This document shows positions 1-10,880 of a DNA stretch of 10,880 nucleotides, in pieces (the stretch's first letter is position 1; each line of letters starts with the position of its first letter). The notes beneath the pieces are model-generated. The model saw only the letters and a program-made list of their open reading frames with translations, did not search any database and was not told the origin of the DNA. Source of the DNA: an uncultured Bdellovibrio sp. (GTDB taxonomy: Bacteria > Bdellovibrionota > Bdellovibrionia > Bdellovibrionales > Bdellovibrionaceae); contig CAZMVK010000095.1 in assembly GCA_964569545.1 (NCBI GenBank), forward strand, positions 1-10,880, in the 5' to 3' direction. The position numbers were made by a program, and so were the translations under genes.

Positions 1-1849
1 TTACTTTGTCTTCGTTTTGCTTTTTCTCTTTGTTAATTTGGTCTTTAATTTTTTGCAATTGTGAATCTACTTGCGATTTAAGATTATTGAGTTGTTTTTC
101 AATTTCGGCTCTGTTTTTGCCGACTTCATCGTTTATGCTTTTTTGTAGTTTTGCTCGAGCTTCGTCAATTTTCTTTTGTATTTGCTTTCCAAAACCTTTC
201 TGAAGTTCTGGTCCGAAGTTAGAGCTTAGGTCAAGTTTAACATTTTGTGGAAGTTCGCCGGCGGCATTGGCTTCGATATTTAAATTTGGAAGTCCGTTGA
301 ATACGGATATTAAAATTTCTTTAAGAATAGGTTCTTTTGCGGAAATTTCATATTTTGCATTTTGTATAATATTTTTGCTTTGTAAATTAAGCTGCTTTAG
401 TCCAATCAGATTTCCTTGTGAATTGATTGAGGCATTAGCGTTTGTGAAGGAAATGCTGGCATCCTCGCTCTGAAGTAGGTCTTTTGAATCAATAGCGTAG
501 CTGCCAATTTTGAAGTCGTAATGAATTTTGCTTTCATTTTGAGTGTTGTCGAGTGAAAACATTGTTTCTAGATTGGAAATTTTCTGAGCCGGGAAGTCTC
601 CTTGGATATTCATTACTGTAGGTTTTTTTGTTAGCTTTTGATTAGATGTAATATCTGTAATTCCACCTTTGATGTTTCCGTAATTAGAGTTGTTTGTTGT
701 TGATTTTGAGCTAATCAAAATCTTTTTTAGCCAGAACATTGGTAAACTGTTGTTATGTCCAAACTCGTATGAGATCCCTTTGGAGCGTGGGTGTGGTTTA
801 ATGGTCTCGTCATCTGTTGACGTGTTATCTTTTTTAAGAAGTTTTGGTGGTAAATATTTTTCAGCTAGTCCGCGATAGTAATTGGCTTTGTTGATATAAG
901 GATTGAGATATGAGCGCAAAATGCTTTCTGTTATGCTTTTGGCATCAAGCTTTGGTAAATGTAGACGTTGCTCTAAGTTTTTAATGTCACTTTTGATGGA
1001 TTGATCAATTTCTTTTAGTTGAGTGTCTAGAAATTTAATATCTTCGTTGAATTCGCCATCTGCCCCTTGAACTTTTTTAAATTTCTCATCTATTTCTTTT
1101 ACGATTTTGTCGGCTTCGCTAAGTGTTTGTTGTAATTCTTGCGGTGATTTAAAATCTTTTGTTTTTAGTTTGGATATGCGATCGTTGATGCCTTGTATTT
1201 CTTGTTGGTTGGGAAGTGATTTTAATTTGTCGTCCCATTTTTTTTGTTTATCTTTGATCGTTATGTTTAAGGCATCAATTTTTTTCTTTGATTCTAGATT
1301 GTCTTGAATTTTTCCCAACTGATCTTGATTGTTTGATTGTGATAAAAATGCGGCAATATCGCCAATTGCATTTTCTTTGTTTTTATTTTCAATAGTTTGT
1401 AGCGCCTTGTCTTTAGCTTCGTTAATTACTTTTGATGTTTGTCCATCGTCTGCTTTGGGCGGCTCTGGTGGTTTGACTTTTCCTTTGGTTTTTCTCAAAG
1501 TATTGATGCCGATTTGTTCAACTGCAATTTCATCAATGATCAGGCGTGCTCGTAATAGACCATTCCATGGGATTGAAAATCGAATTTCTCCAATTTCGAC
1601 AGCGTTGTGCTGAGGATTTTCAGAGTCTGTGAGTTCGAGTTTTTTAAGTTGAAAAGAGCCGTCGAAAAAACTGGTTTTTATTTGCTCGATATTGAGTTCG
1701 ACACCAAGAGCTTGGTAGCCGCCGAATTCTATTGCTTTTTTAAGGTGAAGGTCGAAAAGGAAGTGGAAATAGCAGTAAGTAATAACCATGATGATGAAGA
1801 ATGGTACGACTGCTTCTGTGCGAATTGGACCTTTAATTTTTTTACTCAT
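1..1849 (-). CDS. Large membrane-anchored protein: one N-terminal TM helix, an AsmA/TamB-like beta-rich region, then a long Lys/Glu/Gln-rich coiled coil. Possibly a TIGR03545-family member. Start codon is in the window; the 3' end runs off the left edge (at least 616 codons).
   Basis: Hand translation of the minus strand from ATG (revcomp of 1847-1849) gives MSKKIKGPIRTEAVVPFFIIMVITYCYFHFLFDLHLKKAIEFGGYQALGVELNIEQ... with no stop through position 2. A GGAG Shine-Dalgarno sits 5 nt upstream (revcomp ctctGGAGttcacATG). All plus-strand ORFs in 1-1867 are short, F/L/S/C-rich antisense artefacts. The six-frame track omits this ORF, presumably because it is edge-truncated. Confidence 0.75.
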   Translation of the reverse strand, partial: MSKKIKGPIRTEAVVPFFIIMVITYCYFHFLFDLHLKKAIEFGGYQALGVELNIEQIKTSFFDGSFQLKKLELTDSENPQHNAVEIGEIRFSIPWNGLLRARLIIDEIAVEQIGINTLRKTKGKVKPPEPPKADDGQTSKVINEAKDKALQTIENKNKENAIGDIAAFLSQSNNQDQLGKIQDNLESKKKIDALNITIKDKQKKWDDKLKSLPNQQEIQGINDRISKLKTKDFKSPQELQQTLSEADKIVKEIDEKFKKVQGADGEFNEDIKFLDTQLKEIDQSIKSDIKNLEQRLHLPKLDAKSITESILRSYLNPYINKANYYRGLAEKYLPPKLLKKDNTSTDDETIKPHPRSKGISYEFGHNNSLPMFWLKKILISSKSTTNNSNYGNIKGGITDITSNQKLTKKPTVMNIQGDFPAQKISNLETMFSLDNTQNESKIHYDFKIGSYAIDSKDLLQSEDASISFTNANASINSQGNLIGLKQLNLQSKNIIQNAKYEISAKEPILKEILISVFNGLPNLNIEANAAGELPQNVKLDLSSNFGPELQKGFGKQIQKKIDEARAKLQKSINDEVGKNRAEIEKQLNNLKSQVDSQLQKIKDQINKEKKQNEDKV

Positions 1850-2109
1850 GTGAACTCCAGAGTTTGATCTTTCTCAAGTGACTGAATTGGTTAACAGTAT
1901 GGATATCAAAATGTTTATTAATATGGTTATTCTATATTGAGTGGAAATATTTTTTCAACGTATGAAAGTCGAAAATAAATTATGTAAGTACTAGGTCGAT
2001 TGATTTTTATTCTGGAGAATCTTTGTAAGACTTTTTGATTAAACATTTTTTGGTCTCTTTATTAAAGTGTTAGTTCTGTTAAGTTCGACAAAGTTAGGTC
2101 AGATAAAGG

Positions 2110-2637
2110 CTATGCGCCATAAAGGCTGTTGTATTTGCTATACCATTGGTAGAATGAAGTGCTCATCCACATTTTCCAAATTTTTGTAGATTGGTAGCGA
2201 GCGACGACAACTTCGCGATATTTAATGATAAGTGATTTGAAAACGAAAAATAAGATTGGTGCTAATGCAAATGAAATGACCGCTGAACCCATAAATATAG
2301 AATTGTTAAAGCGTGTGAGTGGAAGCAGGGGTACATTGTACATTTTAATGAAAATTTCGCGAAGAGCCGTGCTTTCGAGTATCGCTCTGCCTAGTTGATC
2401 TGAGACTGGGTCGAAAAGATAAGCTACGAATTTGAAAAAGAATGCAGATAAGGTTGCAGCCCCTAGTTGAACTCGGAAAAAAAAGCATATGAAAATAATT
2501 AGTATTGTTTGAAGAGACAGGGCTGGGGCGAAGCCAAGAACGACTCCGAAAGCTAAGCCTGAGGCAAGTTGATATGTTCCAGTGTCGGAATTTAGTAGTT
2601 TGAAAAACGAAAAAATTTCTTTTAATAAGAGTGTCAT
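2110..2637 (-). CDS. Small polytopic membrane protein, DUF2062-like (TIGR03546-like partner of the upstream large protein)
   Basis: 175-aa ORF with a hydrophobic core GLAFGVVLGFAPALSLQTILIIFICFFFRVQLGAATLSAFFFKFVAYLFDPVSDQLG that matches my recollection of the DUF2062 pattern (GxxxGxxxGxxP...Q...). AGGAG RBS 5 nt before the ATG (revcomp caggagattttATG). Same strand as, and immediately upstream of, the large gene, consistent with the reported TIGR03545/TIGR03546 adjacency (recalled from memory, not verified). Confidence 0.7.
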   Translation of the reverse strand: MTLLLKEIFSFFKLLNSDTGTYQLASGLAFGVVLGFAPALSLQTILIIFICFFFRVQLGAATLSAFFFKFVAYLFDPVSDQLGRAILESTALREIFIKMYNVPLLPLTRFNNSIFMGSAVISFALAPILFFVFKSLIIKYREVVVARYQSTKIWKMWMSTSFYQWYSKYNSLYGA

Positions 2638-2799
2638 AAAATCTCCTGATTCTGCTCGATCTGTTTTTATTATTTACCATTGATGATATAAAAGTGTCTA
2701 ATAAAACTGATGATTCGTTGTCTTTTTGGGATGATCACCTGTAGAAGTTAGGATTTGATCTGACAGTTGCCCTTTTGCTTTGCAAAATTATTTGTACTG

Positions 2800-3737
2800 T
2801 CAGTTCAAGTTCAGATTAAGATTAAGATTCTTTTCTTCCCATTTTTTTATTCCGTCAATAAAAGTTTCCATCGGCGTTCTTCCGTTGCACATTTTTCCTT
2901 GATGAGTCCTCCTTTCATTATACTCCTGCATCCAGATATCTAAATCTGCTTGTAATTCTTCGATGGATTTGAATATCTTTTTTCTAAATGCAATTTGATA
3001 AAACTCATTTAAAATTGTTTTATGGAAACGTTCGCAGATTCCATTCGTTTGTGGATGACGTACTTTTGTTTTTGTATGTTCAATATCATTTACGCCAATA
3101 AATAATTGATATTCATGTTGATCGACCTTGCCGCAGTAATCGGTGTTTTTTGATTGTATAATTTTGCAAATGCAACTTTTGAATAAGTGTCCACAAATGT
3201 CTGCTGATAAATACGGCCAACACTCTTTAATGTGCCCACATAAAACGTATCTTGTGAGCCCAGATAGCCTGGGTGGGCTGTTTCTGTTTTTCCGTGAGCT
3301 ACGTCATCATCTTGCTTGCGCTCAAGTGCTGACAGCTGTGCTTCGGTAAATACGAGGCCAAGTTCGGCACTACGCTTTTCTAAAACTGTTAATCTTTTTT
3401 GAAATGACTCAAGATCATGACGTTGCCAAATACAATGAACTCCTGCGGGTGATACAAAAATACCAATTTTGCACAGTTCATTTGATGCTCTTTTCTGACC
3501 GAATGCTGGATTGTCATGAGACATCTTAACAACTTCATTTTCAATCTTTTCATCAATACGATTTTTTAGATTTAGTTTCCGCCGTGACACTTCGTAGAGT
3601 GCATCGACGCCACCCTCATCTGTTAATTCTTTGTAACGATAAAATGTATCCCTTGAATAACCCATGATTTTACAGGCTTTAGATACATTTTGAATCTCAG
3701 CGGCTAAACTTAATAGTCCAACCTTGTTTGATATGAT
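2800..3737 (-). pseudogene. IS481-family DDE transposase, disrupted: no canonical start, -1 frameshift at an A6 run, probable internal deletion between catalytic D1 and D2
   Basis: Frame A (3665->3090) reads MGYSRDTFYRYKELTDEGGVDAL...HPGYLGSQDTFYVGTLKSVGRIYQQTFVDTYSKVAFAKLYNQKTPITAARS... Its in-frame upstream extension, KIISNKVGLLSLAAEIQNVSKACKI (HTH-like), has no ATG before a TAA at 3741-3743. The -1 frame continues ...NTDYCGKVDQHEYQLFIGVNDIEHTKTKVRHPQTNGICERFHKTILNEFYQ...RTHQGK...EEKNLNLNLNLN, with the stop at 2800-2802. The frames switch at the coding-strand A6 run (plus-strand T6 at 3146-3151). The D1 (SQDTF) to D2 (NTDY) spacing is only about 37 aa, suggesting about 20 aa deleted. The rve-type DDE core (D...D...35...E, PQTNGxxER) is recognisable. 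Confidence 0.65.
2803..2830 (-). repeat. Hexanucleotide microsatellite (gttcaa/gttcag x2, attaag x2.5) encoding the (LN)4 tail of the transposase
   Basis: Plus strand 2803-2830 gttcaagttcagattaagattaagattc. On the minus strand this is ...aatcttaatcttaatctgaacttgaac = NLNLNLNLN followed by a stop. Confidence 0.6.
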
Positions 3738-3876
3738 TTTTTAATTTACTTTTGTTTACATAATTCAGTTACCTTTTCTTGATCGTGGTGATCATGTTTG
3801 TTTATTGCTAAACAAAAGGGTAACTGGGTTATCCACATTTTTTAATTCCAGATGTGTTGACGCAAACAACATGTCA

Positions 3877-3889
3877 TTTTTTTTTTTTT
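3877..3889 (+). repeat. T13 homopolymer (A13 on minus) in the flotillin-gene upstream region, 14 bp downstream of a TTGACG -35-like hexamer (3857-3862)
   Basis: The sequence ...gtgTTGACGcaaacaacatgtcaTTTTTTTTTTTTTgcgaacc... is read directly. It lies between the IS remnant (ends about 3795) and the flotillin start (3947). Confidence 0.8.
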
Positions 3890-3946
3890 GCGAACCTCTA
3901 GGTTTTAGTTTACGATTTGACCTTATGCGAAAAAGGAGAATCTGCA

Positions 3947-6013
3947 GTGGATATTATATCGTCGCTTTTGCCATTATTGTTGATTGCCGCAGCTGGCGGT
4001 CTTTGTTTCTTCATCTTCACTCGCTTTTTAGTCAATGTGGGGTCTGATGAAATCGCTATTACAGAAAGACAATTTGTTGGAAGTGAATTGGCACCTGGCA
4101 GGGTTTTCGCTTTAGATAATGAGGTTGGGCTGCGAGCGAGTTTTTTAGCTCCAGGGCTGCACTTTATACCTTGGCCAGTTGTAAAGTTATCGAATAAGCC
4201 AAAGTTTTTGAATATTGATGCCGACGAACTTGGAATTATCGAAGCTACCGATGGAGTTTCTCTTCCGTCAGGACGAATTTTTGCCGATGATCCAGCTGGC
4301 GGAAAGCATGATAACTTTCAAAATCCTGTTGAGTTTTTAAGAAGTGGTGGAATTCGAGGAAAGCAGCTTCGCTTTTTAACGAATGGAACTTTTAAAATTC
4401 ATCCTGATCTGTTTCGGGTTACGAAAATTAAAAAAACAACAATTCCTGAGGGAAAAATAGGAGTAGTTACCGCAGCTGATGGAGCCCCACTTGGTGGTCA
4501 TTTGCTTTCTAAAAGCATCGAAGGTCATGACAACTTTCAAAAAGCTGAAATATTCCTGCAAAATGGTGGTGAAAAAGGCCCTCAAATAGATTTTTTACGA
4601 CCTGGTGTTTATAACATCAACACTGAGGTCTTTAATGTAGCGATACATAATGCTATTCAAATCAGTGAAAATGAAATTGGTGTTGTCGATGCTCGCGATG
4701 GTTTGCCAATGAATCGTGATGAAGTTGTCGTCCATACTCCAGACAACCATCAGTATTTTCAAAATGGTCAGCTGTTTTTAGATAGTGGTGGCAAGCGAGG
4801 TCCTCAGGAGAGCATTTTAACACCAGGAACCTACTATATTAATCCCTATTTATTTTCAGTTTCAAAACGAAAGCAAACTATTGTTGCTCAAGGTGAAGTT
4901 GCCGTATTGATCTCGAATGTTGGCAAGGGTCCTGAGGAGTTTATTCCAAACGAAGCTGAAACAGCTGCAGAGCAAGATAAACATAAAGCAAGACATGTTG
5001 TCCCTAAGGGATACAGAGGAATTCAGCGAGAAGTTTTAGGTCCAGGAGCTTACAATATCAATCCCTTAGCTTACACTGTTATCATTATGCCAACGATTAC
5101 TCGTTCTGTCGATTGGAGTGCTGAGGCGGTGAGAAGCAATCCCGAGGGAAGCTTCGACCCGTTTCAAGTTGTTTCTTATGATGGTTTTCCTATGCAAGTT
5201 GAAGTTCGTTGCCAGTATCGGGTGCTTCCAGAAAATGCTCCCTATGTTGTGCAGAAAATTGGATCGATTGATGAACTAGAGAGTAATGCAATTCATCCAC
5301 AAATTGATGGTATATTTAGGGCCCAGGTGTCTCGTTCTCCTGCAATTTCCTACCAACAAAATCGTGCCGAAGAACAAAAAGCTGCTGAGGAAGCTGTTCG
5401 CATGGATCTAGCGAAATATCGAGTTGAAGTCGTGTCGGTTATGATTACCAACATCCATTTGCCCGAAGCTCTTATGAAGACGACACAACAAAAGAATTTA
5501 GCTGAACAAGAAAAGTCTATGTACGATGCTAAAAAAGATGCCGAGCAACGACGGATTGAGTTTGAAAAAACTCGGGCAGAAGCTGACATGCAAGTCGATA
5601 TTATTAAAGCTGAATCAGGAATCAAAGTGGCTCAACATGAGGCTAGGCAAATGGAAGAGCGAGCTAGAGGAGATGCTTCTCGTGTTCGCATGAGTGCAGA
5701 AGCTGAAGCCACACGAACAAAACAAATAGGTGATGCTGAAGCTGGTGTTGTTCAATCCAAAGGGGAAGCACAAGCCAAAGCATACCGTGACCAAGTTGCT
5801 GCTTTAACTGCACAAGGGGTCACTACTGTTGAAGTTGTTAAAGCAATTTCGGCGGCAGGATTAAAAATCACTCCTGATATTCAGATTTCTGGATCTGGCT
5901 CTCAGTCAGGAGATAGTTCGAACGGTTTAGTCCAAGTTCTACTTGCGCAATTTATTCAACAGCAAAAAAATAGACCTGACGAATCCAACAAGCAAGTTCT
6001 ACCTACTTCGTAA
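3947..6013 (+). CDS. Flotillin-like SPFH (band 7) family membrane protein (YqiK/FloT-type) with an expanded, internally repeated N-terminal region
   Basis: AAGGAG (3933-3938) lies 8 nt before GTG 3947. The six-frame track begins at TTG 3917, but the GTG start yields M-DIISSLLPLLLIAAAGGLCFFIF, a typical flotillin N-terminal TM. The SPFH core includes ...PGLHFIPWPVV... and ...VEVRCQYRVLPENAPYVVQKIGSIDELESNAIHPQIDGIFRAQVS... The C-terminal Ala/Glu/Gln-rich flotillin coiled coil includes EQRRIEFEKTRAEADMQVDIIKAESGIKVAQHEARQMEERARGDAS...AEAGVVQSKGEAQAKAYRDQVAALTAQGVTTVEVVKAISAAG. About 330 aa are inserted between SPFH strand 1 and the rest of the domain. Confidence 0.85.
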   Translation: MDIISSLLPLLLIAAAGGLCFFIFTRFLVNVGSDEIAITERQFVGSELAPGRVFALDNEVGLRASFLAPGLHFIPWPVVKLSNKPKFLNIDADELGIIEATDGVSLPSGRIFADDPAGGKHDNFQNPVEFLRSGGIRGKQLRFLTNGTFKIHPDLFRVTKIKKTTIPEGKIGVVTAADGAPLGGHLLSKSIEGHDNFQKAEIFLQNGGEKGPQIDFLRPGVYNINTEVFNVAIHNAIQISENEIGVVDARDGLPMNRDEVVVHTPDNHQYFQNGQLFLDSGGKRGPQESILTPGTYYINPYLFSVSKRKQTIVAQGEVAVLISNVGKGPEEFIPNEAETAAEQDKHKARHVVPKGYRGIQREVLGPGAYNINPLAYTVIIMPTITRSVDWSAEAVRSNPEGSFDPFQVVSYDGFPMQVEVRCQYRVLPENAPYVVQKIGSIDELESNAIHPQIDGIFRAQVSRSPAISYQQNRAEEQKAAEEAVRMDLAKYRVEVVSVMITNIHLPEALMKTTQQKNLAEQEKSMYDAKKDAEQRRIEFEKTRAEADMQVDIIKAESGIKVAQHEARQMEERARGDASRVRMSAEAEATRTKQIGDAEAGVVQSKGEAQAKAYRDQVAALTAQGVTTVEVVKAISAAGLKITPDIQISGSGSQSGDSSNGLVQVLLAQFIQQQKNRPDESNKQVLPTS
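4217..5117 (+). repeat. Four tandem degenerate protein-level repeats (about 73-80 aa, about 220 bp each) inside the flotillin CDS; a fifth, shorter founder copy lies at about 4049-4216
   Basis: Aligned units: ELGIIEATDGVSLP...GKHDNFQNPVEFLRSGGIRGKQLRFLTNGTFKIHPDLF; IPEGKIGVVTAADGAPL...GHDNFQKAEIFLQNGGEKGPQIDFLRPGVYNINTEVF; ISENEIGVVDARDGLPM...DNHQYFQNGQLFLDSGGKRGPQESILTPGTYYINPYLF; IVAQGEVAVLISNVGKGP...GYRGIQREVLGPGAYNINPLAY. Each resembles the canonical SPFH N-terminal hairpin (EIAITERQFVG...LAPGLHFIPWPVV). Confidence 0.6.
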
Positions 6014-6282
6014 AAAATCAGCTATTAGGCAGCAATTTATTGTGAAATCTCAAAACCCGCGGAGATCGATATCGCCACGGAAAGATAAATCATCGCTGGG
6101 GTTCACAAATGGGCTCCGTCATCTTGAGGAAGCAAAATGTTGTGCGGAATTTCTGCGATATCGAAGTAAAGAACCCAGGGAGTTATCAGGGAGATATGAA
6201 GGAAGAAATAAAGTTTATACCCGCGTTAAACCTTCGATGAAAAATTGCAAAGAAGCTCCAGTTAAATTTAGACTCATGTGAT
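6014..6282 (+). other. 269-bp spacer with no ORF of 60 aa or more (only a 43-aa candidate sORF), relatively GC-rich and carrying palindromes; candidate leader/regulatory RNA, internal promoter or sORF between flotillin and the M48 operon
   Basis: No minus-strand ORF of 60 aa or more. The only plus-strand ORF is the tail of a frame overlapping the flotillin 3' end. It contains the CCGCGG and CGATATCG palindromes and the inverted 10-mers tcgatatcgc (6066-6075) / gcgatatcga (6155-6164). Candidate 43-aa sORF at 6109-6240 (MGSVILRKQNVVRNFCDIEVKNPGSYQGDMKEEIKFIPALNLR) with GGGG 9-12 nt upstream. Confidence 0.35.
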
Positions 6283-7413
6283 ATGAAATCATTGACTGGA
6301 ATTTTAGTATCGTCTGGTGAAAATCAAAACAGACAACAGGTTGATCTTGCATTTCACGGTTGCAACCTAAATATCTCAGCTGATATTTCGAATCTTTTGT
6401 TGTTGAGTTTGCCTATTTCAAGTCTTGATTTCCATCTAGGTGGTAGTAATTTGTTGTTTATTACCTCAAATAGCTTGGGGGAAAATACGCTTTATGTCGA
6501 AGCCTCTGCTGAAAACTTTAGACAACTTGAGGCGGCTGCTGAAATTGGTAAAAAACTGGCTGCGATAAAAAAACAGAGAAAAATATCAGCCTTGCAAACG
6601 ACAGTTTGGTTATCACTTGCAATTGGGATATTTGCAGGCTTGGTCCTATTCAGAGGGCCCATATTTGGTGGGCTTGGAACTCTTTTTCCGTTTTCATGGG
6701 AAAAGAAAATTGCCGATGAAGTATTCAACCCCAAATTGACCCGCGAACAAATGGAACTGACGCAGAAACTTGCAGAGCTAGTTGCTTATTTAAAAATGGA
6801 TGAAAAAAGTTGGCCAGAAAAATTTGTTGTGCATATTTCTTCTGACAAAGAACTCAATGCCTATGCCACTCTTGGCGGGCATTTATTTATCACTCGAGGC
6901 CTCATCGAAGAGCTTGATCGACCAGAGCAATTGTTGGGTGTTTTAGCCCATGAAATGGTTCATGTGCAAAAACGACATGTTGTTCGTTTGGTCTTTCAAG
7001 GTCTGGGTTTATTTACCGTCTTCCAGCTGATTCTTGGTGATGTCTCGGGCCTGGTCGCAATTGCGGTTGACCAAGGCGGTCCTTTGTTTAATTTGCAATA
7101 TTCTAGGACTTTAGAAGCTGAAGCTGATCAACTGGGGATCCGGCTATTGATACAAAATCAAATCGACCCCCGTGGCCTTCCGGAAAGTCTGAAACTAATG
7201 TCTGATCACCAAAAGACTATTTTAAAACAAACCCCAGGTGGTGAGACGCTTGAAAAAATTGGGGACATTGAGTTTATTAGCTCTCATCCCGAGTTGGAAA
7301 AGCGAATTCACAGTTTACAACAAATCACTGAAATCGGCGCGGCAGAGATGAAGATTAAAAAGATAGAATTTGATTATGTGAATTTTAAACAAAGGGTAAA
7401 GGAGGTTTTTTAA
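6283..7413 (+). CDS. M48-family zinc metallopeptidase (HtpX/Oma1-like membrane protease) with an N-terminal extension of about 100 aa and one TM segment
   Basis: HExxH zinc motif LAHEMVHVQKRH (nt about 6949-6963) and a downstream EAEAD motif (LEAEADQLGIRLL), typical of peptidase M48. Hydrophobic segment ALQTTVWLSLAIGIFAGLVLFRGPIFGGLGTLFPF. Weak RBS at ATG 6283. The stop (7411-7413) lies 2 nt before the next gene. Confidence 0.8.
   Translation: MKSLTGILVSSGENQNRQQVDLAFHGCNLNISADISNLLLLSLPISSLDFHLGGSNLLFITSNSLGENTLYVEASAENFRQLEAAAEIGKKLAAIKKQRKISALQTTVWLSLAIGIFAGLVLFRGPIFGGLGTLFPFSWEKKIADEVFNPKLTREQMELTQKLAELVAYLKMDEKSWPEKFVVHISSDKELNAYATLGGHLFITRGLIEELDRPEQLLGVLAHEMVHVQKRHVVRLVFQGLGLFTVFQLILGDVSGLVAIAVDQGGPLFNLQYSRTLEAEADQLGIRLLIQNQIDPRGLPESLKLMSDHQKTILKQTPGGETLEKIGDIEFISSHPELEKRIHSLQQITEIGAAEMKIKKIEFDYVNFKQRVKEVF
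7399..7405 (+). promoter_or_regulatory. Strong Shine-Dalgarno (AAGGAGG) for the first AIM24 paralog, embedded in the 3' end of the M48 gene (translational coupling)
   Basis: The sequence gggtaAAGGAGGttttttaattATGg places the SD 10 nt upstream of ATG 7416. Confidence 0.7.
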
Positions 7414-7415
7414 TT

Positions 7416-8096
7416 ATGGAAAAACCAATTTCAAAGGTCGAATGCATTGGATCCTCATCATTTGGGATGCTGAAAGCTTCTATTGCTCCAAATCACGTTT
7501 TAGTGGTGGAACCCGGAGCGATGGCCAGCCAAGACGTCGGGATTGAATGTGTGATTGATGTGAACGGAGGAATTTTATCCGCTATTATGGCAAAATTTTT
7601 TGGCAAAGAGAGCTTCTTTATCAGTTACTATAAAAACAACTCTCAAGCCCCTCAAGAAATTTATTTTACACAGGCAACCCCTGGGCAAATTGTTGAGAAA
7701 GAATTAAAAAATGAACGAATTTATCTTGAGCCCGGGTCATTTATTGCTCGCGTCCCGCAAGTTCAAAGCAAAGTCGTTTGGGCTGGTTTTGCTAGTTTCT
7801 TTGCCGGCGAGGGTTTGTTTCGTTTGTGTTTTCAAGGTTCTGGTAAAATTTGGTATGGGGCTTATGGTGCCGTTATTGAAAAGGAAATCGTCGGAGACTA
7901 TATCGTTGACTCGGGCCATTTGCTATCCTACCCGCCTACCATCCATTTATCAATCCGACTGTCAGGCGGTATTTTTTCCAGTATTTTTTCCGGTGAAGGA
8001 TTTGTTCTGAAACTATCTGGCTCGGGTAAAATTCAATTGCAAACGCGCAACGTAAAGGGGTTAGCTCAATGGCTAAACCCAAGGTTTTGGGGGTAA
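7416..8096 (+). CDS. AIM24/TIGR00266 (DUF124) family protein, paralog 1
   Basis: 226-aa ORF with the family's characteristic glycine-rich repeats ...FFAGEGLFRLCFQGSGKIWYGAYGAVIEKEIVGDYIVDSGHLLSY...FSGEGFVLKLSGSGKIQLQTRN. Confidence 0.85.
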   Translation: MEKPISKVECIGSSSFGMLKASIAPNHVLVVEPGAMASQDVGIECVIDVNGGILSAIMAKFFGKESFFISYYKNNSQAPQEIYFTQATPGQIVEKELKNERIYLEPGSFIARVPQVQSKVVWAGFASFFAGEGLFRLCFQGSGKIWYGAYGAVIEKEIVGDYIVDSGHLLSYPPTIHLSIRLSGGIFSSIFSGEGFVLKLSGSGKIQLQTRNVKGLAQWLNPRFWG

Positions 8097-8098
8097 TC

Positions 8099-8776
8099 AT
8101 GGACATTGAAATTAAATATGCACCTTCTGGGACCGCGGCCATTTGCAAGCTTAATCCTGGCGAAGTTTTGGTTGCCGAGAGCGGTGCTTTGATGGCGCTA
8201 AAAGGAAAAGTTCAATTTGAAACCACCACTCGTCAGCGAACAGGTGGCGGAGTCATAGCGGGGGTAAAGCGACTAGTCAGTGGCGAATCTTTTTTCATCA
8301 ATAAATTCACTGCCAAAGAAGACTGCCAAGTATGGCTTGGCACAGCTCTGCCAGGCGATATCTCTGTTCATGAGTTGAGAGGAGAAAAATTCATTATTCA
8401 AGGCGGCAGTTATATTGCCTGTGAAGAAACGGTTCACATAGATTTAGAGTGGCAAGGATTGAAAACTTTATTTTCAGGTGAAAGCCTTTTCTGGGTAAAA
8501 GCTAAAGGCCACGGCAAAGTGTTGATTGGAAGTTTTGGATTTATCTATCCTATCCAAGTCAAGGGCGAATACCTGGTCGACACTAGTCACATCGTTGCCT
8601 TTGAGGAAACTCTTGATTTTGAAATTTCAAAAAACAATCGATCTTGGCTCGGAGCTTTGCTTGGTGGTGAAGGTTTTGTTTGCCGCTTTCGCGGCAATGG
8701 AACAGTTTGGTGTCAAAGCCACAATCCAAAGGCCTTTGGCTATACCTTGCGACCTTATTTGAAGAAAAAAACTTAG
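8099..8776 (+). CDS. AIM24/TIGR00266 (DUF124) family protein, paralog 2
   Basis: Start chosen at ATG 8099 (MDIEIKYAPSG...), 2 nt after the upstream stop, because its N-terminus aligns with paralog 3 (MMSFKIEHKPEF...). The track's alternative ATG at 8069 would overlap paralog 1. Motifs ...FSGESLFWVKAKGHGKVLIGSFG...YLVDTSHIVAFEE...LLGGEGFVCRFRGNGTVWCQS. Confidence 0.8.
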   Translation: MDIEIKYAPSGTAAICKLNPGEVLVAESGALMALKGKVQFETTTRQRTGGGVIAGVKRLVSGESFFINKFTAKEDCQVWLGTALPGDISVHELRGEKFIIQGGSYIACEETVHIDLEWQGLKTLFSGESLFWVKAKGHGKVLIGSFGFIYPIQVKGEYLVDTSHIVAFEETLDFEISKNNRSWLGALLGGEGFVCRFRGNGTVWCQSHNPKAFGYTLRPYLKKKT

Positions 8777-8792
8777 CAACCCGGAGCTTAAA

Positions 8793-9461
8793 ATGATGTC
8801 ATTTAAAATTGAACATAAACCAGAATTTGCTTGGTTGTCAGTTGTCGTGCCTGCCAAAAAAAAGCTTTTTGTCGAGGCCTCCGCGATGGCCGCAATGTCG
8901 ACAAATATGTCCATGCGGGCCTTATTTAAAGGAGGCCTAAAGCGTTTTTTATCCAAAGAAAATTTATTTATTTCAGAATTTACCGCTGATCGAATTGATG
9001 GCGAAGTTTGTATTGCCCCCGGTCCGAATGGAGATATCGGACATTTTTTATTAAACGGAGAAGTAGTTTATTTGGCTTCTACCAGTTTTGTCGCCCACAC
9101 CGAAGGCGTCTCTTATGAAACAAAATTTCAAAAATTGTCCCAAGGTCTTCTGGGGGGAGCTGGATGGTTTTTAATTAAAATGACTGGAACCGGAGATGTT
9201 TGGTTTAATTCATACGGAGCTCTGGTTGAGCTGGATGTCACCGATGACTTAGTCGTCGACAACGGACACATCGTGGCCTTTACCGAAGGGGTTCAGTATG
9301 ACATTACACGTATTGGTGGGTACAAATCTCTGCTCTTTTCTGGCGAAGGCTTTGTCTGTCGGTTTCGTGGTAACGGTAAGGTCTATATCCAAACCAAAAA
9401 ACCAGCGGCACTCATTTCCTGGGCCTCTCGATTCCGAATTGTCAAAAGATCAAGTAACTAA
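8793..9461 (+). CDS. AIM24/TIGR00266 (DUF124) family protein, paralog 3
   Basis: 222-aa ORF with GGAG 6 nt upstream of the ATG. Motifs ...LLGGAGWFLIKMTGTGDVWFNSYG...LVVDNGHIVAFTEG...LFSGEGFVCRFRGNGKVYIQT. GEGFVCRFRGNG is identical to paralog 2. Confidence 0.85.
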   Translation: MMSFKIEHKPEFAWLSVVVPAKKKLFVEASAMAAMSTNMSMRALFKGGLKRFLSKENLFISEFTADRIDGEVCIAPGPNGDIGHFLLNGEVVYLASTSFVAHTEGVSYETKFQKLSQGLLGGAGWFLIKMTGTGDVWFNSYGALVELDVTDDLVVDNGHIVAFTEGVQYDITRIGGYKSLLFSGEGFVCRFRGNGKVYIQTKKPAALISWASRFRIVKRSSN

Positions 9462-9468
9462 AGAAATT

Positions 9469-9480
9469 TTTTGTACAAAA
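9469..9480. repeat. Perfect 12-bp AT palindrome TTTTGTACAAAA in the convergent intergenic region
   Basis: Sequence ...aagaaattTTTTGTACAAAActagag..., 8 bp after the AIM24-3 stop and 64 bp before the stop of the convergent minus-strand gene. Confidence 0.6.
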
Positions 9481-9544
9481 CTAGAGCTTGGTGCTGATTG
9501 TTTTTAATGAGCAGTAAATGACACTCTTTGAGAGCACGCCCAGG

Positions 9545-10531
9545 TTATTGGATATTTTGTTTTTCTTGGTGGTGTTTGTATTGAACATATAAAAATGCTC
9601 CCCAAATGCCCATGCCAAATTGTCCAATTTGTAGTGCTGTCATAGCTGATGGGCCGATGGCGCCAGAGTTGGGTGCTACGAGGTTAAATAAAAAGAAAGA
9701 GGCAGCTTGCCCGACACCAATTCCTGCTGGAGAGATTGGAATTGCTTGTACGATAAAAGCAATAGGAACGACAAAAAGATAGGTTGCGTAACTGACGTCT
9801 GAGGCTTGCAACAGGTGGCCTGCGTAAATGAAAAAACCAATAGTACATATCTGTGCAAAGAAACTTAGTAATAAAGTAATCCAAAAAATTTTTTTATTGT
9901 TTTTATATGCGGCAAGGCAATGGATGGTCTGTAAAAGATGTTGGCCTTTGGGTAGTTTTTCAATTGCTCTGTGTATTATTTTATTTGTGGATAGGTTGGT
10001 GTGTAAAAGACAAAAAATGCCAATAATAAAAAGTATAGTAATGCTAAAAAGCGCGACGGCAATGTGTTTTGTTGTAGGATTGGCCAACATAAGATTCAGC
10101 TGGCTTAGTATTGAAATGCTTGCCATTAAAATCAGGGCAAAGAGGCCGATGAGTCGGTCGATCAATACTGTTATTGCAGCGCCAATTTTATATTGATGTG
10201 ATTTCCTGGTGATATAATAGCCTTTGATAAGGTCGCCTCCGACGCCGCCAGGCATGGCAAAATTAAAGAATGTACCAATCAATGTGAGGTCCCAAACCTG
10301 TCTGTAGGGAATTTGAATTTGTTGGGACCTAAGCAATAAGTGCCAGCGCTTACTTGTGAGGGCAAAATTGAAAAGAATAAGAATAGTGCCGATGATCAAA
10401 AATTCTGGAGTGAGTAGTTTGTTGAGAGAGCTGAATTCGAGACGGCCACTTTGAATAAGCCAAAAAATCAAGCCCACCGCAAAAATAATTTTGGCGCTGA
10501 GTGTGGCAACTTTTTTAATCTTGCGACGCAT
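9545..10531 (-). CDS. Polytopic membrane protein with a lysylphosphatidylglycerol-synthase-TM-like (UPF0104 / flippase-like) domain
   Basis: 328-aa ORF with at least 8 hydrophobic segments. Conserved AMPGGVGGDLIKGYY motif (PGGxGxxE/D), as in LPG_synthase_TM-domain proteins. AAGGA RBS 7 nt before the ATG (revcomp gaAAGGAttatcccATG). Lies next to a dTDP-sugar pathway gene. Confidence 0.8.
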   Translation of the reverse strand: MRRKIKKVATLSAKIIFAVGLIFWLIQSGRLEFSSLNKLLTPEFLIIGTILILFNFALTSKRWHLLLRSQQIQIPYRQVWDLTLIGTFFNFAMPGGVGGDLIKGYYITRKSHQYKIGAAITVLIDRLIGLFALILMASISILSQLNLMLANPTTKHIAVALFSITILFIIGIFCLLHTNLSTNKIIHRAIEKLPKGQHLLQTIHCLAAYKNNKKIFWITLLLSFFAQICTIGFFIYAGHLLQASDVSYATYLFVVPIAFIVQAIPISPAGIGVGQAASFFLFNLVAPNSGAIGPSAMTALQIGQFGMGIWGAFLYVQYKHHQEKQNIQ

Positions 10532-10644
10532 GGGATAATCCTTTCGGCTGGTTTCGGATATTACTGAGGCTTGTGCTTGATGACAATGAGTTTTAGGTAG
10601 TAGTTTGGGGCTTTGAGCTAATGTGAAATGGACTGAGGGTTAAA

Positions 10645-10880
10645 ATGAAAAAACATTTGCTGGTCACCGGTGGTGCAGGTTTTATTGGTAGTAATTTTGT
10701 ACATTTGGCGGTGGCTCATGGCTATCAGGTAACTATTTTGGATGCCTTGACCTATGCAGGTCATGAGGCGAATATTCGGGATTGTATTGCTTCTGGAAAA
10801 TGTCAGTTGATTCGCGGGCGTATTGAAGATGCTGAGTTTGTGAATAGTTTGTTTGCTCAGAATAAATTTAGTTCAATAGT
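10645..10880 (+). CDS. rfbB: dTDP-glucose 4,6-dehydratase, N-terminal 78 codons; the 3' end runs off the window
   Basis: MKKHLLVTGGAGFIGSNFVHLAVAHGYQVTILDALTYAGHEANI... gives a Rossmann TGGAGFIGS motif and the LDxLTYAG signature typical of RmlB/RfbB. GAGGG lies 5 nt before the ATG. Omitted from the ORF track, presumably because it is edge-truncated. Confidence 0.85.
   Translation, partial: MKKHLLVTGGAGFIGSNFVHLAVAHGYQVTILDALTYAGHEANIRDCIASGKCQLIRGRIEDAEFVNSLFAQNKFSSI

Follow-up and report, generated by a model that had tools for sequence, protein, structure and literature searches.

A putative four-gene operon of an M48 metalloprotease and three AIM24 paralogues in an uncultured Bdellovibrio sp., recurring in at least three bacterial phyla

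Organization of the locus

The window analysed here is a stretch of DNA of 10,880 nucleotides (nt) from an uncultured Bdellovibrio sp. (GenBank assembly GCA_964569545.1, contig CAZMVK010000095.1, positions 1 to 10,880), and the genes of interest are five that lie one behind the other on its + strand: a gene for a protein with an SPFH (Band_7) domain, a gene for an M48 zinc metalloprotease, and three genes for paralogous proteins of the AIM24/TIGR00266 family, which we call AIM24-A, AIM24-B and AIM24-C (Table 1). An earlier reading of the sequence alone (the original prediction) had described them as five co-directional genes with gaps of 2, 2 and 16 nt between the last four, and our reading of the open reading frames (ORFs) and of the junctions confirmed both the coordinates and the spacing. 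The M48 stop codon is followed two nucleotides later by the start of AIM24-A (TAA-tt-ATG), with AAGGAGG within the 3' end of the M48 gene, and AIM24-A is followed in the same way by AIM24-B (TAA-tc-ATG), with GGGGG within the 3' end of AIM24-A. An alternative ATG for AIM24-B at 8069 would make it overlap AIM24-A. At the third junction a TAG, 16 nt and an ATG succeed one another, and the GGAG found there lies inside the spacer; the idea that the Shine-Dalgarno sequences are embedded in the upstream genes thus holds for the first two junctions and not for the third. Compared with the 2-16 nt gaps within this M48-AIM24 cassette, the gap between the SPFH and M48 genes is wide, at 269 nt. No consensus promoter or terminator was detected in it, and its predicted RNA folding was not unusual (z = +1.2).

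Conservation of the M48-AIM24 cassette

The M48 gene followed by AIM24-A, AIM24-B and AIM24-C, in the same order and tightly packed, was found at 22 non-redundant loci, whose hosts include Bdellovibrionota, Bacteroidota (Flammeovirga, Aureibacter, Lishizhenia) and Cellvibrio and represent at least three phyla. Four diverged homologues of the protease on long contigs (35-49% identity) all have three AIM24 genes next downstream, and none of the four has a Band_7 gene within 10 kb. Seeding with AIM24-C, at one genome per species, gave nine complete loci and one truncated locus with the M48, A, B and C genes in Bdellovibrionota and two such loci in Bacteroidota, while three more AIM24-C relatives (53-55% identity, including that of Cellvibrio sp. 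OA-2007) belong to an identical four-gene set. Two further cassettes were present among distant M48 loci (L032 and L046). In the Cytophagales Aureibacter tunicatorum NBRC 107587 and Flammeovirga kamogawensis YS10 the cassette is located on large secondary replicons, and the RefSeq names of its genes in both are just "M48 family metallopeptidase" and "TIGR00266 family protein".

Most of the intergenic gaps within the 22 loci measure from a few nt to about 25 nt, with a maximum of about 50 nt, and in many loci stop and start codons are only 0-4 nt apart; larger values and overlaps are artefacts of taking the longest ORF. Beyond close relatives no flanking genes common to the cassette loci were found, and the G+C content of the loci ranges from 35 to 57%. 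Upstream of the M48 gene the 22 loci show no shared motif and no alternative-sigma promoter, with a single sigma-32-like match in locus L018. The content, order and tight spacing of the cassette are therefore constant over at least three phyla while its surroundings change. This conservation suggests that the functional unit is a four-gene operon, M48-AIM24A-AIM24B-AIM24C. Our literature search found no description of an M48-AIM24 cassette, nor of a function for any bacterial AIM24 protein, so that the cassette, an association of known families, offers a first testable context for the bacterial members of this family.

The association is not confined to one gene arrangement. As a control we used 80 distant M48 loci (at most 35% identity) from a metagenome scan with the M48 alignment, divided by architecture into 27 proteins in which an N-terminal domain and a helix precede the catalytic domain and 53 of a signal-peptide or soluble type. 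Among the matches listed, an adjacent AIM24 gene occurs in 5/27 of the former and 0/53 of the latter (one-sided Fisher p = 0.003). Two of the five have the triplet downstream (the cassettes L032 and L046 mentioned above); in the other three (L039, L044 and L051) one AIM24 gene lies immediately upstream. Recurrence of the pairing in a second arrangement speaks for a functional link specific to the M48 architecture with an N-terminal domain and helix. The three loci with a single upstream AIM24 gene lie on high-GC metagenome contigs (56-59% G+C).

The M48 protease

The protease scores 95.5 bits against the Pfam model PF01435, whose cut-off is 20.3. It is predicted to begin with a PH/PTB-like domain (amino acids (aa) ~4-83), which is followed by a stretch rich in Lys and Arg next to the membrane and by a single transmembrane helix (aa ~106-128). 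The zinc-binding motif HEMVH occupies residues 223-227, and E278, E280 and D282 lie in SRxLExEAD; H223, E224, H227 and E278 are invariant across 30 homologues. The AlphaFold2 (AF2) model, with a mean confidence (pLDDT) of 85, has seven strands and a helix at aa 4-83, then a long helix containing the only transmembrane segment, then the catalytic domain. Foldseek matched the N-terminal part of this model to PH and PTB domains and the catalytic part to 3C37 and BepA. For the N-terminal region Pfam DUF7092 is reached by 7/30 aligned family members, and the window protein falls short of it. A second hydrophobic stretch of the protein corresponds, in alignments with BepA-type matches, to the hydrophobic segment that separates their zinc-ligand motifs. 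The M48 start codon has no obvious Shine-Dalgarno sequence.

The original prediction called this enzyme HtpX/Oma1-type. Its assignment to M48 stands, but the HtpX part does not, the closest relatives among solved structures being Geobacter 3C37 and E. coli BepA by both sequence and structure matches. Against the HtpX-type models the protein reaches 16-33 bits where the cut-offs are 245-422, and it has one transmembrane helix before the catalytic domain rather than a four-helix topology. It is not BepA itself either, as it scores 65 bits against an NCBIfam cut-off of 570 and has no TPR region in its 376 aa; the LoiP model gives 38 bits against 365. These matches indicate an enzyme that is BepA/LoiP/3C37-like and not HtpX-like. 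Six family members have 4-7 Lys/Arg residues before the transmembrane helix and 1-3 after it, from which the positive-inside rule predicts a cytoplasmic PH/PTB-like domain and a periplasmic catalytic domain. The predicted topology therefore resembles that of BepA and LoiP, with catalysis on the periplasmic side. M48 proteins of the BepA/3C37 type are periplasmic.

The AIM24 triplet

The three AIM24/TIGR00266 paralogues of the original prediction are well supported, with 161-188 bits against a TIGR00266 cut-off of 96.6 and 159-206 bits against a PF01987 cut-off of 25.7. They are homologous to the proteins of PDB entries 1PG6 and 1YOX (both matched by AIM24-C). According to PMC6677890 the AIM24 fold is built from three TRAP-like beta-sandwich repeats; for the plant members of the family a homotrimer with a flat bottom was modelled. 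No hydrophobic segment or signal peptide was detected in any of the three.

When five loci were compared, AIM24 proteins at the same position shared 57-76% identity and those at different positions 26-36%. AIM24-A shares 60-72% identity with its position-A counterparts in other loci and 26-36% with B and C; identity is 57-69% within position B and 65-76% within position C. Because identity is so much higher within positions than between them, the triplication appears to be old and the A-B-C order fixed. The AIM24 proteins are also better conserved than the protease, for which identity is 34-50%. Each ends in a conserved tail, rich in Trp, Phe, Arg and Lys, that is specific to its position: ...KGLAQWLNPRFWG in AIM24-A, kept over 20 loci, ...CQSHNPxSFGxxLTPYLKPK in AIM24-B and ...QTKKPAALIxWAxxFRxVxxSN in AIM24-C.

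Some AIM24 proteins of other loci are extended at the N-terminus. Cassettes of the Cellvibrio type and of high G+C content encode an AIM24-C with an extra domain of ~75 aa and, behind it, a linker rich in Pro and Ala (Table 1); three of these proteins give weak, sub-threshold matches to the C-terminal domain of ribosomal protein L7/L12 (E = 0.008-0.085). The first paralogue is likewise extended at its N-terminus (316 and 425 aa) in L028 and L030, two AIM24 triplets that have no M48 gene.

Proposed mechanism and alternatives

We favour, and think it probable, that the four genes form a unit in which an AIM24 A:B:C hetero-oligomer is docked on a bitopic M48 protease. AIM24-A, AIM24-B and AIM24-C would be produced in equal amounts through translational coupling and, because they have neither a signal peptide nor a transmembrane segment, would stay in the cytoplasm, where they could assemble into a hetero-oligomer lying against the cytoplasmic side of the inner membrane. 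The original prediction had also raised the possibility of a heteromeric AIM24 partner complex, and this suggestion appears to fit the ancient, position-specific divergence of the three proteins. A possible role for the Trp/Phe/Arg-rich tails could be to hold the hetero-oligomer on the membrane, to insert into the PH/PTB-like domain of the protease, or both; PTB domains classically bind peptide tails. The hetero-oligomer would dock on this cytoplasmic domain, while the catalytic domain would act on envelope proteins on the periplasmic side. If so, the pair may couple the cytoplasmic or membrane state to envelope proteolysis, or work in the reverse direction, and the AIM24 complex would be a regulator or scaffold of the protease rather than its substrate. 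A fixed operon of three specialised AIM24 paralogues with one kind of membrane protease makes this a concrete hypothesis, and cassette-bearing strains that can be cultured are at hand in Flammeovirga kamogawensis YS10, Aureibacter tunicatorum NBRC 107587 and Cellvibrio sp. OA-2007.

Several points weigh against this explanation. The cassette loci were gathered by seeding with relatives of the M48 protein or of AIM24-C, and not by an unbiased genome census. AIM24 triplets of the same order occur without any M48 gene in loci of Myxococcota, Bradymonadales and Sandaracinus (Table 1), where their neighbours are genes for unrelated enzymes (a PLP-dependent enzyme, SufB, a short-chain dehydrogenase), so that the protease is not needed for the triplet to work. 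No AIM24 gene lies near at least 10 M48 proteins that have the N-terminal domain and helix and adequate flanking sequence, and the link is thus not obligatory. The A:B:C complex, like its docking onto the PH/PTB-like domain, is inferred by us, and if the topology of the protease were reversed it could act directly on the AIM24 proteins. From the existence of the M48-less triplets it follows that the triplet would predate the association with the protease, which would have joined it as a partner in particular lineages, but repeatedly.

That triplets occur without M48, and M48 proteins of the same type without AIM24, would also be expected if the four genes were only co-regulated, for example as a unit of one envelope-stress regulon, and their products did not interact physically. 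We regard this as unlikely, since a fixed order, gaps of 0-4 nt in many loci and the recurrence of the pair with a single upstream AIM24 gene are typical of interacting products. A different relationship would exist if the AIM24 proteins were substrates or pro-proteins of the protease, or if the protease trimmed their tails, with both partners on the same side of the membrane. The tight co-encoding of the genes, the intact catalytic residues of the protease and the conserved, position-specific C-terminal tails of all three AIM24 proteins are in keeping with such processing. However, the positive-inside rule places the N-terminus of the protease in the cytoplasm, and not its catalytic domain, in 6/6 proteins; the catalytic domain is nearest to the periplasmic BepA/3C37 type, the AIM24 proteins have no export signals, and the triplets without M48 retain AIM24-B-like and AIM24-C-like members. 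Processing of the AIM24 proteins by the protease is thus improbable on our assessment.

It is also possible to read the cassette as an accessory module for stress response or phage resistance that moves horizontally and follows a logic akin to that of TerD-associated AIM24 genes. The distribution over phyla is patchy and the flanks are unrelated, two Cytophagales carry the cassette on large secondary replicons, and AIM24 genes are found within ter clusters (PMC5822837). Mobile-element or toxin-antitoxin genes also lie within a few kb of several unrelated cassettes (Table 1), among them a RES-Xre pair, a group II intron reverse transcriptase, a Y1 transposase, a Transposase_mut gene and the IS481 remnant of the window. 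Yet none of seven window proteins matched a PADLOC defence-system model, no Ter genes were seen among the window proteins, in the cassette loci annotated by family or among the RefSeq product names of two more, and the cassette was not found in phage records. The neighbours of the cassette are mostly housekeeping or metabolic genes, and the spread of G+C content from 35 to 57% speaks, in our reading, for a long stay in different hosts and against recent transfer. We give a horizontally moving module of this kind little chance of being correct.

Comparison with known systems

The BepA/LoiP/YcaL-type M48 proteins (PDB 6AIT, 6SAR) and the Geobacter protein Q74D82 (3C37) share with the cassette protease the catalytic fold and the motifs, HExxH and a downstream Glu in SRxxExEAD. 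The cassette protease differs in that it has no TPR domain, signal peptide or lipobox, and has instead the PH/PTB-like domain and the single transmembrane helix. We know of no AIM24 partner of BepA or LoiP.

Among eukaryotic AIM24 proteins the closest parallel is that of the plant proteins PAWH1 and PAWH2 of the Hrd1 complex for endoplasmic-reticulum-associated degradation (ERAD), which are membrane-anchored partners of a membrane protein-degradation complex and whose modelled trimer presents a flat surface to the membrane (PMC6677890). There too AIM24 proteins at a membrane are partners of a protein-degradation machine, as we infer for the cassette. However, PAWH1 and PAWH2 carry a transmembrane helix at the C-terminus, and the partner they bind, EBS7/Hrd1, is a ubiquitin ligase rather than a metalloprotease, whereas the cassette has three distinct, short-tailed AIM24 paralogues and an M48 partner. 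Yeast Aim24 has the AIM24 domain in common with the cassette proteins and, according to PMC3975624, is associated with the energy-transducing inner membrane as a partner of MICOS and of respiratory supercomplexes; it is the product of a single gene and not of a triplet. No protease partner of Aim24 was found in the searchable literature, where papers mentioning both Aim24 and Oma1 do so in passing (Aim24 at most twice) and name neither in the title or abstract.

A wider view would make the A:B:C complex and the PH-domain M48 protein a trans-membrane device that links the cytoplasmic face of the membrane to periplasmic proteolysis, and would see in it an ancestral role of bacterial AIM24 proteins as membrane-surface adaptors of quality-control machines, later reused by plant Hrd1-ERAD and by mitochondrial inner-membrane complexes. 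This is an attractive view, but we hold it to be doubtful.

With the SPFH operons (HflKC-FtsH, QmcA-YbbJ) the cassette has in common that a membrane protease, or its partner, is encoded beside an oligomeric accessory protein. The accessory proteins of the cassette are, however, AIM24 and not SPFH proteins, and the SPFH gene of the window is not kept beside it; an SPFH domain is present, but conserved adjacency to a partner gene was not found. The ter clusters (PMC5822837) likewise have a bacterial AIM24/TIGR00266 gene embedded in a conserved, stress-related cluster, but they contain one AIM24 gene and no M48 gene where the cassette contains three AIM24 genes and no Ter genes. The cassette thus belongs neither to the HflKC-FtsH/SPFH-NfeD type nor to the Ter clusters, and it is not a PADLOC system.

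The SPFH neighbour

The SPFH gene adjoins the cassette in only 1/22 loci, which is the window itself. This count is based on precomputed Pfam annotation (seven loci), RefSeq annotation (two) and a Pfam scan of upstream neighbours (eight more), and further on a family hidden Markov model and tblastn over ~119 loci. Three orthologues of the SPFH protein (91%, 80% and 77% identity) are encoded by genes that stand alone in unrelated surroundings, and neither M48 nor AIM24 genes lie within 10 kb of them. The original prediction had proposed a conserved, undescribed bacterial module that included the SPFH gene and had called for a test of gene-neighbourhood co-occurrence. Given the single adjoining locus and the solitary orthologues, the five-gene hypothesis fails that test, while the four-gene core, with its 22 loci, passes it. 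The SPFH gene thus appears, from gene order, to be a chance neighbour and not part of the conserved module.

A membrane microdomain or proteostasis module of all five genes, with an SPFH scaffold, the M48 protease and AIM24 proteins arranged like mitochondrial prohibitin, OMA1 and Aim24, is therefore very improbable: the genes are adjacent and co-directional in the window, read-through transcription is possible because the SPFH-M48 gap has no consensus terminator, and SPFH proteins do partner membrane proteases such as FtsH, but the SPFH gene is not kept beside the cassette, its orthologues stand alone, the gap before M48 far exceeds those within the cassette, and the protease is nearest, among solved structures, to 3C37/BepA and is not HtpX-like. 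The tempting mitochondrial analogy needed both the SPFH link and a protease of the HtpX/Oma1 type, neither of which was upheld, and we have dropped it as unsupported.

The SPFH protein itself, which is identical to a database protein (P0089), belongs to a large and unusually conserved family, with >3000 matches and 70-91% identity across Bdellovibrionota, Planctomycetes and Micavibrio. It is laid out as a membrane-anchored protein with an N-terminal transmembrane helix, five tandem beta-repeat units in the first ~360 aa, the SPFH core and a long helix rich in Glu and Ala. Its match to Band_7 (PF01145; E = 7e-24) covers aa 363-544 only. This is the sole Pfam match, NCBIfam gave none, and the flotillin label of the original prediction found no flotillin-specific match to support it; the C-terminal 170 aa have no Pfam match, and the Pfam Vault repeat was not detected by sequence. 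When the repeat region was used as query, 873 cluster representatives were obtained, of which the best 150 range from ~110 to 1802 aa with up to seven matched stretches, which implies that repeat number varies in this family.

In the AF2 model aa 1-330 are confident and the SPFH core is poorly predicted. The 13 best Foldseek matches of this model in the PDB are all major vault protein, with prohibitin, stomatin and flotillin at E >= 1e-3. In the model, tandem beta-repeats of the vault-protein type precede an SPFH-like shoulder, after which comes a long helix that would correspond to the cap helix, suggesting that the protein folds like major vault protein and is not a flotillin in the strict sense. 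It differs from major vault protein by its transmembrane helix at the N-terminus, by having five repeats in place of nine and by the lack of a Pfam Vault match, and the likeness comes from a predicted single chain. Bacterial band-7 proteins with a fold like that of major vault protein have already been reported (PMC3762200; bioRxiv 10.1101/872010), and the window protein is, on the predicted model, a further member of this known group. An ORF of 112 aa, rich in Lys and Arg, overlaps the 3' end of the SPFH gene and stops 2 nt before the M48 start; because of this overlap and composition we regard it as spurious.

Other features of the window

Table 1. Coordinates of the genes and other features of the window and of the related loci
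Feature	Locus	Coordinates	Strand	Remarks
SPFH/Band_7 gene	window	3947-6013	+	688 aa; GTG start at 3947, AAAGGAG 8 nt upstream
M48 zinc metalloprotease gene	window	6283-7413	+	376 aa; Peptidase_M48 PF01435, E = 5e-27
AIM24-A (first paralogue)	window	7416-8096	+	226 aa; PF01987, E = 2e-46; TIGR00266, 161 bits
AIM24-B	window	8099-8776	+	225 aa from ATG 8099; PF01987, E = 7e-61; TIGR00266, 188 bits
AIM24-C	window	8793-9461	+	222 aa; PF01987, E = 3e-58; TIGR00266, 185 bits
ORF regarded as spurious	window	5943-6281	+	112 aa
IS481-family transposase remnant	window	3090-3665	-	191-aa N-terminal fragment; family match
TIGR03545/TIGR03546 pair, first gene	window	1-1849	-	616 aa; 401 bits; start at 1849, open to the window edge
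TIGR03545/TIGR03546 pair, second gene	window	2110-2637	-	
Flippase-like gene	window	9545-10531	-	LPG_synthase_TM domain (TIGR00374 family)
AIM24 triplet without M48	L027	1532-3650		
AIM24 triplet without M48	L028	8345-10675		
AIM24 triplet without M48	L029	9932-12111		
AIM24 triplet without M48	L030	7923-10687		
Single AIM24 upstream of M48	L039	4768-6702		
Single AIM24 upstream of M48	L044	638-2445		
Single AIM24 upstream of M48	L051	897-2805		
Extended AIM24-C	L112	8001-8936		
Extended AIM24-C	L113	5815-6813		
Extended AIM24-C	L032	5021-6010		
Extended AIM24-C	P0281, P0287, P0298, P0305, P0318			
Mobile-element/toxin-antitoxin gene near cassette	L112	4087-5227		
Mobile-element/toxin-antitoxin genes near cassette	L113	1376-2176, 6944-7642		
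Mobile-element/toxin-antitoxin gene near cassette	L115	1889-3133		

The insertion sequence remnant that had been noted beside the five genes is real and is a truncated transposase of the IS481 family. Further upstream lies a gene pair of the TIGR03545/TIGR03546 (DUF2062) families, of unknown function, the first gene of which has no stop codon inside the window. A flippase-like gene is convergent with the cassette on its other side and is not kept beside it in other loci. No Rfam match was found in the window. DNA identical to the window occurs only on short metagenome contigs, and the closest named relatives of several window proteins are from Bdellovibrionota.

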